Source: Trichlorobacter lovleyi SZ
GTDB lineage: Bacteria; Desulfobacterota; Desulfuromonadia; Geobacterales; Pseudopelobacteraceae
Direction of reading: 5' to 3'
DNA length: 32,000 nt
NCBI RefSeq assembly: GCF_000020385.1
Contig: NC_010814.1
Location: 2,130,001-2,162,000 of the forward strand
The translations under genes and the position numbers were made by a program. Shown piece after piece: positions 9,721-17,483 of this stretch (the first letter of the stretch is position 1; each line of letters opens with the position of its first letter). The notes below the pieces were generated by a model that saw only the letters and a list, made by a program, of their open reading frames with translations, was not told where the DNA came from and searched no databases.

Positions 9721-12217
<2,497 letters not shown>

Positions 12218-15518: not shown

Positions 15519-15887
15519 CTAGAAGACAAAATGCAGTTTGACGCTTAAACCGTTGATTGGCGGCACTTCCTGGTTCGATGCCATGTTGATGCGCGGCACT
15601 TCCTGCTGTGTATGCGGATCTTCCGGTGGACAGTACGCAAACACCATCTGTACGGAGCCATATTTCACCACCAGATCCCCGTTTTCATTCAGCCTCACGG
15701 TTGCGGCTGTTTTCTGTCTGTTCGGGGGAGTCTGTTGCCAGGAGACAGCACTACCTGTGTCATCTTTAAAGAAGACCAGAAGCGATTCAGCACAGACTGT
15801 TTGAGGGACAAGGACGGCAATAAGAGCAGCTACGGCAACAAGACGTTGAAAGGTTACGATGCATAACAACCTGCGACAAGCTGCCAT
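15519..15887 (-). CDS. Small secreted hypothetical protein (122 aa) with an OMP-like C-terminal aromatic motif
   Basis: ATG at 15885-15887, 6 nt after GAAGGGGG. Signal peptide MAACRRLLCIVTFQRLVAVAALIAVLVPQTVCA/ES. The C-terminus LSVKLHFVF alternates hydrophobic residues and ends in Phe. No recognisable family. The ORF-track start (15941) would place the terminator-region hairpin inside the coding sequence. Confidence 0.55.
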   Translation of the reverse strand: MAACRRLLCIVTFQRLVAVAALIAVLVPQTVCAESLLVFFKDDTGSAVSWQQTPPNRQKTAATVRLNENGDLVVKYGSVQMVFAYCPPEDPHTQQEVPRINMASNQEVPPINGLSVKLHFVF

Positions 15888-15939
15888 TGGGAGCCCCCTT
15901 CGGGCATCTGCTGCCCGGTGCCGTTGAAAGTCCCGGCAC

Positions 15940-15987
15940 AAAAAACCGGGACGCGTACGTATCTTGGCAGATATTTCGGCGACCCGG
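15940..15987 (-). terminator. Intrinsic terminator acting as the riboswitch expression platform
   Basis: On the minus strand, CCGGGUCGC (15987-15979) pairs with GCGUCCCGG (15954-15946) in 8 of 9 positions. An inner 5-bp stem UAUCU/AGAUA carries a GCCA loop. U6 follows immediately (15945-15940). The 5' arm is part of the conserved 3' strand of the upstream aptamer. Confidence 0.6.
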
Positions 15988-16050
15988 CTGTCTCAGAGAG
16001 ATCCTGTAGGCTTTCCGTCCCATCCTCGCGAATGGTTTAGTATTATCGTG
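15968..16050 (-). promoter_or_regulatory. GEMM-I-like (c-di-GMP-I / cGAMP class) riboswitch aptamer
   Basis: The minus-strand RNA reads CACGAUAAUACUAAACCAUUCGCGAGGAUGGGACGGAAAGCCUACAGGAUCUCUCUGAGACAGCCGGGUCGCCGAAAUAUCUG. It contains AAACC, a 6-bp helix CCAUUC/GGAUGG capped by the GNRA loop GCGA, GGGACGGAAAGCC, and the 3' element AGCCGGGUCGCCGA. These match the conserved core of GEMM-I as I recall it from the V. cholerae Vc2 aptamer. This is a by-eye call, not a covariance-model score. Confidence 0.65.
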
Positions 16051-16340
16051 TATCCATGGTATGTAGCTTTATAATCCAGCATAAAGCGTGCCCAGTCTGA
16101 TATTTTTTTCAGCAACCCGCCCAATCGGCCGTTTTGAGGAACTGAATCAGTATACCGTCATGGGCAAGCAGCTCGCCTTGTGGCGCTTTTTGTTTTTATT
16201 GAGTGACATTTTTTTGCAGTTTTTTCGTAATTTCCAGCAACCAACATGGATCGCTTGACCAGAGTGTGGGAAACTGCAGAATAATTCAAAACAACCTACG
16301 GCTTTCAAAACAGCCGGCTCCGAAACAAAGAAAGCACACT

Positions 16341-17479
16341 ATGAACTTTACTCTCTTAAAAAAAGACACTCACTCAGCCGCCCGGCTCGGCATCCTCCAG
16401 ACCAGCCATGGCGAAATCCAGACTCCGATCTTCATGCCGGTGGCCACCCATGGAGCCATGAAGCCGCTGACCCCGGCCCAGATCCATGAAACCGGGGCAC
16501 AGATCATCCTCTCCAACACCTACCATCTGCACCTGCAGCCCGGTGAAGGACTGGTCAAAAAGGCTGGTGGACTACACAGATTCATGGCCTGGGAAAAACC
16601 GATCCTGACCGATTCAGGCGGGTTCCAGGTCTTTTCACTGCCCAAGAAGCGGATTACTGAAGATGGCGTCTTTTTCAAACATGAGCTGACCGGCGAAGAG
16701 ATCTACCTTGATCCGGCCAAGGCGATCGGTATCCAGCAGGAGCTGGGCTCAGACATTATGATGGCCTTTGATGAATGCATCCCCTACCCCTGCGACAAGG
16801 CCTATGCCGAGCAGTCCACTAAAAAGACGATCCGCTGGCTGAAGGAGTGTCAGAAAGCCTGGACCAACCGTGAGACCCAGGCCCTGTTCGGCATTGTCCA
16901 GGGCAGCGTGTATGAAGACCTGCGGATCATGTGCGCCAAAGAGATGCGCAAGCTGGACCTGCCCGGCTATGCCATCGGCGGGGTCAGCGTGGGCGAAGGC
17001 CTGGAACTGCTCAAAAAGGTGGTGGGCTGGACCGCCCCGCACCTGCCGGAGGACAAGCCACGCTACCTGATGGGAGTCGGCCTGCCTGAAGATATTCTGG
17101 AAAGTGTTGAGCGGGGTATGGATATGTTTGACTGCGTGATCCCGACCCGCTACGCCCGCAGTGCCACCCTGTTTACCCGGCGCGGCAAGATCAGGGTCAC
17201 CAACAAAAACTACAAACGGGATTTTTTCCCGGTTGACCCCTCCTGCAGCTGCTACACCTGCCAGAACTTCAGCCGGGCCTATCTGCACCACCTGTTTGCT
17301 GCCAACGAGGTGCTTTCGGCAGTACTGTCCGCCATCCACAACGTCACCTTCTACCTGCAAATGATGGCAGAGATCCGTCAAGCCATTGCAGACAACCGCT
17401 TTATGGCCTATAAACAGGCCTTTCTGGCTGAATACCTGGCCTCAGAAAAACAGCCCCAAGGACCAAAGAAACACACAAA

Positions 17480-17483
<4 letters not shown>
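16341..17483 (+). CDS. tgt: Second full-length tRNA-guanine transglycosylase paralog
   Basis: 380 aa from the ATG at 16341; the ORF-track GTG at 16203 adds a non-homologous extension. Motifs: [47 protein letters not shown] and the zinc site CSCYTCQNFSRAYLHHL. Confidence 0.9.

Follow-up and report, generated by a model that had tools for sequence, protein, structure and literature searches.

Introduction

The closest described relatives of the riboswitch analysed here are Vc2, the V. cholerae c-di-GMP-I aptamer (RF01051), and Gs1761, a GEMM-Ib aptamer in the pgcA leader of G. sulfurreducens (4YAZ). Vc2 reads the ligand through G20 at the Hoogsteen edge of Gα, through intercalation of A47 and through Watson-Crick pairing of C92 with Gβ, and the equivalent nucleotides in the Gs1761 cGAMP riboswitch are A14, A41 and C75 (PMC5888326, PMC6140456). 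An A at position 20 is the defining substitution of the cGAMP-sensing GEMM-Ib subclass (PMC6140456, PMC9481103). Selectivity requires this A but is not ensured by it, as cGAMP and c-di-GMP are both bound by several A20 aptamers found in nature (PMC6140456). In G. sulfurreducens, cGAMP binding was demonstrated to stabilise the anti-terminator; deletion of gacA, which encodes the cGAMP synthase, lowered all GEMM-Ib-controlled transcripts and increased termination near the aptamer, while mutations in the terminator bypassed the cGAMP requirement (PMC6456294).

The locus described here lies in a window of 32,000 nucleotides, the whole 32-kb stretch of T. lovleyi SZ DNA that was analysed. T. lovleyi, formerly Geobacter lovleyi, belongs to the clade in which GEMM-Ib was discovered, and no mention of the locus in G. 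lovleyi was found in the literature searched. The original prediction, which was made from the sequence alone, had proposed a GEMM-I-like riboswitch with a mutually exclusive terminator and a non-canonical ligand pocket upstream of a small gene. Our analysis suggested that this element is very likely a typical representative of GEMM-Ib, an already known class, with the c-di-GMP-I fold and an A at position 20.

Identification of the aptamer

Re-reading of the minus strand at 15968-16056 gave UGGAUACACGAUAAUACUAAACCAUUCGCGAGGAUGGGACGGAAAGCCUACAGGAUCUCUCUGAGACAGCCGGGUCGCCGAAAUAUCUG and located the sequence quoted in the original prediction where it had been reported. The whole 32-kb window was scanned against 4227 Rfam families at curated gathering thresholds, and the sole match was to c-di-GMP-I (RF01051) at 15975-16051 on the minus strand, covering the full model (1-87) with E=1.7e-4 and 39.4 bits, where the gathering score is 35. 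A more permissive Rfam scan showed no further RNA family anywhere in the 32-kb window, and no tRNA genes were found in it. The c-di-GMP-I-GGC model (RF03167) gave the best-scoring alignment and aligned end to end (44.3 bits against a gathering score of 59; E=2e-7 over the window), sharing with the window element the same short P3 and P1. As RF01051 exceeded its threshold and was the only match in the window, and as RF03167 aligned end to end, the aptamer can be considered real and not a chance resemblance, and the GEMM-I-like assignment holds under the covariance-model check. The aptamer is intergenic and, like the downstream ORF, lies on the minus strand, in a 5' leader that also contains a predicted expression platform. 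The features of the leader are listed in Table 1.

Membership in c-di-GMP-I-GGC itself was rejected, since the RF03167 score fell below 59 and the base equivalent to A47 is an A in the window (16014, GACGGAAAG) but a G in the model consensus (GACGCGAAG). Relatives of the window element scored 47.6-48.3 bits with RF03167, also below 59.

Table 1. Features of the riboswitch leader and its gene, with window positions given 5' to 3' on the transcribed strand except where two dots mark a range (A2, class alignment).
Feature	Position	Strand	Basis
GEMM-I/GEMM-Ib aptamer (P1-P2-P3)	15970..16055	-	RF01051 39.4 bits; RF03167 44.3 bits; class identity; pairing
P1 outer	GAUA 16054-16051 with UAUC 15973-15970	-	A2 covariation; MFE fold of transcript ending at 15968
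P1 inner	C16048-G15977, G16047-C15978	-	Covariance-model and class alignments
Junction	AUAAU	-	Covariance-model and class alignments
A at the Vc2 G20 / Gs1761 A14 position, selects the first base of the ligand	16041	-	Model position 11 (RF01051); PMC6140456, PMC5888326, PMC9481103
Two pairs after position 20	C16040-G16015, U16039·G16016	-	Alignments; AAA platform comes next
P2 hairpin CCAUUC-GCGA-GGAUGG, GNRA tetraloop	16035-16020	-	Covariance model; folding
A equivalent to Vc2 A47 / Gs1761 A41, intercalates between the two ligand bases	16014	-	Covariance-model alignment; invariant A2 column
P3 with UCU loop and AG bulge	16012-15981	-	Covariance-model alignment; orthologues; A2
Conserved GCCGAA junction	15980-15975	-	Covariance model; A2
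C equivalent to Vc2 C92, in GCCGAA	15979	-	Covariance model; A2; numbering checked against PMC5888326
Intrinsic terminator	15988-15940	-	-21 kcal/mol; MFE once 15946-15940 is transcribed; conserved in orthologues
Second hairpin GUCCCGG-U6GUG-CCGGGAC	15952-15930	-	Conserved in orthologues; folding
Hairpin CGGGCA...UGCCCG	15917-15901	-	Folding; stem conserved and loop variable in orthologues
Shine-Dalgarno AGGGGG	15899-15894	-	Follows the CGGGCA...UGCCCG hairpin
Candidate sigma-54-type -24/-12 element GGGCACGCTTTATGCT (GG-N10-GC)	16093-16078	-	Weak evidence
Regulated gene, 122-aa signal-peptide protein of an uncharacterised family	15519..15887	-	Public gene calls, same ORF exactly

Ligand pocket and comparison with described riboswitches

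In the covariance-model alignment, A16041 stands directly 5' of the first P1b pair, and this placement of the A preceding CU at the G20 position settled the meaning of the AUACU stretch, which the original prediction had called unusual and left open. Among the canonical GEMM-I contacts G20, A47 and C92, the last two are present and the G20 to A replacement is the sole departure. The pocket is therefore non-canonical as the original prediction had maintained, in that G20 is replaced, but it is not unusual, because A, A and C at these positions form the known GEMM-Ib signature. The accompanying caution that c-di-GMP could not be presumed to be the ligand was well founded. Based on the A20 rule and the clade of the host, the ligand is most likely 3'3'-cGAMP. 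No homologue of the Hypr GGDEF protein GacA (cGAMP synthase) was identified in the 32-kb window.

Like the window element, Gs1761 has A in place of G20 and then C-G and U·G pairs, the same A47 and C92 equivalents, a GCGA-capped P2, a short P3 and a terminator overlapping the 3' strand of the aptamer with ON logic, and its host also belongs to Geobacterales. The window aptamer is about 90% identical to the sequence that we take to be that of Gs1761 (PDB 4YAZ), and this presumed sequence reproduces the published numbering of A14, A41 and C75 as well as the U72/C73 swap. The two systems differ in their target, as Gs1761 controls the cytochrome PgcA whereas the window element would control a 122-aa secreted protein, and in their arrangement, the window having a single aptamer and not a tandem one. 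Two further differences from Gs1761 are the A·C mismatch that P3 carries in the window lineage and an additional conserved hairpin located downstream of the U tract.

With Vc2 the window element shares the three-helix fold, the AAA platform, the GNRA tetraloop of P2, A47 and C92, but G20 is changed to A and the adjacent pairs are changed from G-C/C-G to C-G/U·G. P3 is much shorter than in Vc2 and RF01051, with an insert of 6 nt in comparison to 18 in the model, so that the long P3 with its tetraloop receptor is absent from the window.

Distribution of the ACT-type aptamers

Species-representative genomes were scanned with the pattern AAACC-N10-14-GGGRCGGAAAGCC, which yielded at least 132 matches that represent a sample and not a census. 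The triplet preceding AAACC split the matches listed into an ACT type (at least 47) and a GCC type (at least 71). The GCC-type matches listed were distributed over many phyla, and the ACT-type loci listed came from Geobacter, Geomonas, Geotalea, and Geobacteraceae or Desulfuromonadales, besides broadly labelled MAGs. The sole ACT exception among the matches listed was L117, on a 2.8-kb contig (JBAYZR010000436.1) assigned to a Pedobacter sp. MAG (Bacteroidota). This contig carries a perfect Geobacterales-type ACU GEMM-Ib aptamer together with its terminator, and its inclusion in the Pedobacter MAG is most likely a binning error. The window aptamer is of the ACT type and was 74-94% identical (mean 88%) to the 46 aligned ACT members among the matches listed.

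A tight coupling between position 20 and the second of the two pairs flanking the AAA platform was also observed, counted in aptamers in which the 3' side of these pairs is GG. Among the matches listed, A20 was associated with a U·G second pair (ACT 47 vs ACC 2) and G20 with a C-G second pair (GCC 71 vs GCT 4).

Secondary structure and covariation

Pairing was evaluated in a class alignment of 49 sequences (A2), in which 26 pairs were scored and controls were generated by sliding the 3' partners by 1-3 columns. Pair cells were standard in 94.1% of A2 in comparison to 31-47% in the slid controls, and changes on both sides were found in 6 of the 26 pairs, spread over P1, P2 and P3 and including three pairs of P2. 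Covariation was taken from paralogous and heterologous class members instead of the orthologous leaders, which are near-invariant. The aptamer, the terminator, the post-terminator hairpin and the pre-Shine-Dalgarno hairpin were almost unchanged among seven orthologous leaders of the Trichlorobacter type, and these leaders thus show conservation and not covariation. The upstream spacer of the same seven leaders varied, and their downstream proteins were only 77-90% identical to that of the window.

The covariance-model alignment reproduced the AAACC...GGGAC core, the 6-bp P2 with its GCGA tetraloop, the C-G/U·G pairs beside the AAA triplet and the 3' AGCCGGGUCGCCGAA element, all of which had been recognised beforehand, while the two remaining helices had to be redrawn. 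P1 had been assigned to the inner GAUA (16047-16044) pairing with UAUC, and this assignment was rejected because the third base of the inner GAUA varies between U, C and A across the class with the 3' UAUC unchanged. It is the outer GAUA that covaries, with pair 4-96 of A2 occurring as AU in 34, GU in 9 and GC in 3 sequences, and the covariation places P1 at 16054-16051/15973-15970, where in the window it can be extended by G16055·U15969. P3 as defined by the covariance model and the class alignment is composed of AGCC/GGUC, C/G, GG/CC and (A)UCUC/GAGA(C) with a UCU loop, which is drawn differently from the short hairpin sketched earlier.

Within P3 the window lineage has one mismatch, A16002·C15990, where the diverged orthologues are all G-C. 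G occupies the position of 16002 in 46 of the 49 rows of A2, and A16002 is common to the window lineage and six assemblies that encode an identical downstream protein. The mismatch costs about 4 bits of Rfam score and could weaken folding.

Terminator and expression platform

The outer stem of the terminator is formed by GCCGGG.CGC (15988-15979) and GCG.CCCGGU (15954-15945), in which CCGGGUCGC (15987-15979) pairs with GCGUCCCGG (15954-15946) ahead of U6 (15945-15940), and the inner stem is formed by UAUCU (15973-15969) and AGAUA (15964-15960). Its 5' arm consists of the 3' strands of P3 and P1 of the aptamer. When progressively longer transcripts were folded, the aptamer fold with P1, P2 and P3 was the MFE structure up to 15968 (-17.8 kcal/mol), and once transcription reached 15946-15940 the terminator replaced P1 and P3 in the MFE fold (-29 to -32 kcal/mol). 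A predicted hairpin of -21 kcal/mol, the U6 tract and a 5' arm shared with P1 and P3 thus bear out the proposal of a terminator that is mutually exclusive with the aptamer.

A two-tier terminator on the 3' strand of the aptamer was predicted by MFE folding in 40 of 48 ACT-type leaders, comprising 46 from the pattern-scan matches listed, the window and one ortholog. The 85-nt 3' segment of the window itself falls outside these 40, as an alternative long-range structure was slightly more stable in this fold, and the advantage of the window terminator would thus be kinetic and not thermodynamic. Across the seven orthologous leaders, a 2-nt loop indel was the only change in the terminator.

The overlap of the terminator 5' arm with the aptamer 3' strand, together with predicted folds that switch with transcript length, supported the ON-switch logic of the original prediction. 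As P1 and P3 held by the ligand would deny the terminator its 5' arm, binding would switch the gene on. The most likely function is that of a 3'3'-cGAMP-dependent ON switch acting by anti-termination, as for pgcA of G. sulfurreducens, and we infer an ON rather than an OFF response from the architecture and from the published G. sulfurreducens work. When no ligand is bound, polymerase would reach approximately 15946, at which point the 3' half of P3, GCCGAA and the UAUC of P1 would pair with GCGUCCCGG/AGAUA, the terminator would form before U6 and transcription would stop at approximately 15940. With the ligand, most likely 3'3'-cGAMP, read by A16041, A16014 and C15979, P1 and P3 would stay closed, the 5' arm of the terminator would be unavailable and polymerase would read through into the gene at 15887.

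Leader beyond the terminator and candidate promoter

The ATG at 15887 follows the U tract by 52 nt and has AGGGGG upstream, in agreement with the earlier estimate of about 50 nt between the end of the terminator and an ATG with a Shine-Dalgarno sequence. The second hairpin re-uses the 3' arm of the terminator and can form only after read-through. When the full leader was folded, its MFE structure further showed the CUCUCU 5' strand of P3, once freed, paired with the Shine-Dalgarno AGGGGG (within 15894-16000). The CUCUCU/AGGGGG pairing and the 15952-15930 hairpin, both predicted by folding, hint at a possible additional layer of translational control.

Upstream of P1 by approximately 25 nt, the candidate sigma-54-type element was nearly invariant (1-2 substitutions) in five orthologous leaders in which the flanking spacer is variable. 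The sigma-54 pattern is about as frequent in the window as expected by chance (27 matches vs 26), and the element was absent upstream of most other class members (GEMM-Ib leaders). A consensus scan found no sigma-70 promoter directly upstream, and a TATAAA-like stretch considered as a sigma-70 element was rejected as it is not conserved. A joint reading can be formulated in which a sigma-54-type promoter, a cGAMP anti-terminator and a translational layer together control an undescribed, Geobacterales-wide family of secreted proteins of about 120 aa that would be an old, core component of the cGAMP regulon, and in this combined form it is quite unlikely.

Downstream gene and its protein family

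The 122-aa ORF has been called in public assemblies including GCA_050171295.1, and its product begins with an N-terminal hydrophobic signal-like helix. The closest named relative is the T. lovleyi hypothetical protein FY034_09185 (90% identical). Searches of the 122-aa protein gave no match in NCBIfam and no credible match in Pfam, where a single alignment far below threshold (E 0.069; 13.5 bits vs a 27-bit cut-off) was obtained. Its AlphaFold model, which is of low confidence (pLDDT 67, pTM 0.37), has a signal helix and a four-stranded sheet.

An exhaustive HMMER search identified 24 remote homologues (P0006-P0029), nearly all of 74-164 aa with one repetitive outlier of 553 aa, and the motifs LNxNGDL, AYxPPE and a C-terminal GISxKxxxxF were common to the relatives of the protein. 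With Rfam, an ACU-type aptamer was found upstream of both checkable homologues, P0010 (38% identical) and P0019 (30%). The occurrence of the aptamer upstream of homologues that are this divergent indicates that the pairing of riboswitch and gene is old and conserved. The public gene calls of P0010 and P0017 were observed to carry false N-terminal extensions reading MGRKAHRVSLRQPG, which is the translated aptamer core.

Alternative interpretations

The identity of the ligand is the point on which another interpretation has the most to be weighed, as the fold is that of GEMM-I by its RF01051 match and the aptamer could be bispecific or bind c-di-GMP. The class founder Gs1761 (PDB 4YAZ) presumably has the same AAUACU...GGAAAGCC...GCCGAA pocket as the window, which we counted against this interpretation, and the window sequence groups with the ACT class of Geobacterales, which is a tight one. 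Both ligands are bound, via protonation of the adenine, by published A20 aptamers such as Cbe 1-2 and, under some conditions, Gs1761 (PMC6140456). For Gs1761, PMC6456294 cites Kellenberger 2015 as reporting an approximately 1200-fold selectivity for cGAMP. A bispecific or c-di-GMP-binding aptamer is on this evidence unlikely, and 3'3'-cGAMP is the ligand favoured here.

Two further interpretations would remove the regulatory function or replace it with a coding one. A decaying aptamer, reduced by the G-to-A change in P3 and the U·G of P2 to a constitutive terminator or attenuator, would agree with the presence of the A16002·C15990 mismatch and with the Rfam score of 44.3 bits in comparison to 48.1-48.3 bits in the orthologues. 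It is very unlikely, because the mismatch is a single terminal one in a 5-bp stem extension and A2 pairs 55-77 and 59-72 tolerate non-pairs, the pocket nucleotides are all preserved and no other helix is disrupted, and the identical leader was found in at least six independent assemblies. It is hardly credible that the ORF at 16023-15787 (MGRKAYRISLRQPGRRNI...) is coding, either for a small protein of its own or for an N-terminal part of the downstream gene product, although this ATG-initiated ORF of 78 aa spans the aptamer and its counterpart was joined to the homologues P0010 and P0017 in public gene calls. The ORF is out of frame with the 122-aa gene (136 nt offset) and contains the terminator, its conserved 'peptide' is the translated aptamer core, and the variation seen across the class is compensatory in the helices. 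A GEMM-Ib riboswitch in the leader of the 122-aa gene is the reading retained here.

Significance and genomic context

The GEMM-Ib class is already known and Rfam's own threshold detects this member; the significance of the locus is therefore modest and extends little beyond annotation. The new information, likewise modest, consists of the corrected P1 and P3, the conserved link to a small secreted family and a possible sigma-54-type promoter, for which the evidence is weak. GEMM-Ib, which has been characterised in G. sulfurreducens and G. metallireducens, also occurs in the organohalide- and nitrate-respiring T. lovleyi lineage, and a database entry that labels such a locus 'c-di-GMP-I riboswitch' probably gives the wrong ligand. 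This analysis also points to small secreted proteins of an uncharacterised family as conserved targets of the cGAMP pathway, which may provide a lead for work on surface or extracellular functions under cGAMP control in Geobacterales.

Two queuine tRNA-ribosyltransferase (TGT) paralogues were found within 6 kb of each other in the window, at 10041-11183 on the minus strand and 16341-17483 on the plus strand. One paralogue adjoins queA, and the other is divergent from the riboswitch gene and is followed by an unannotated 291-aa protein.
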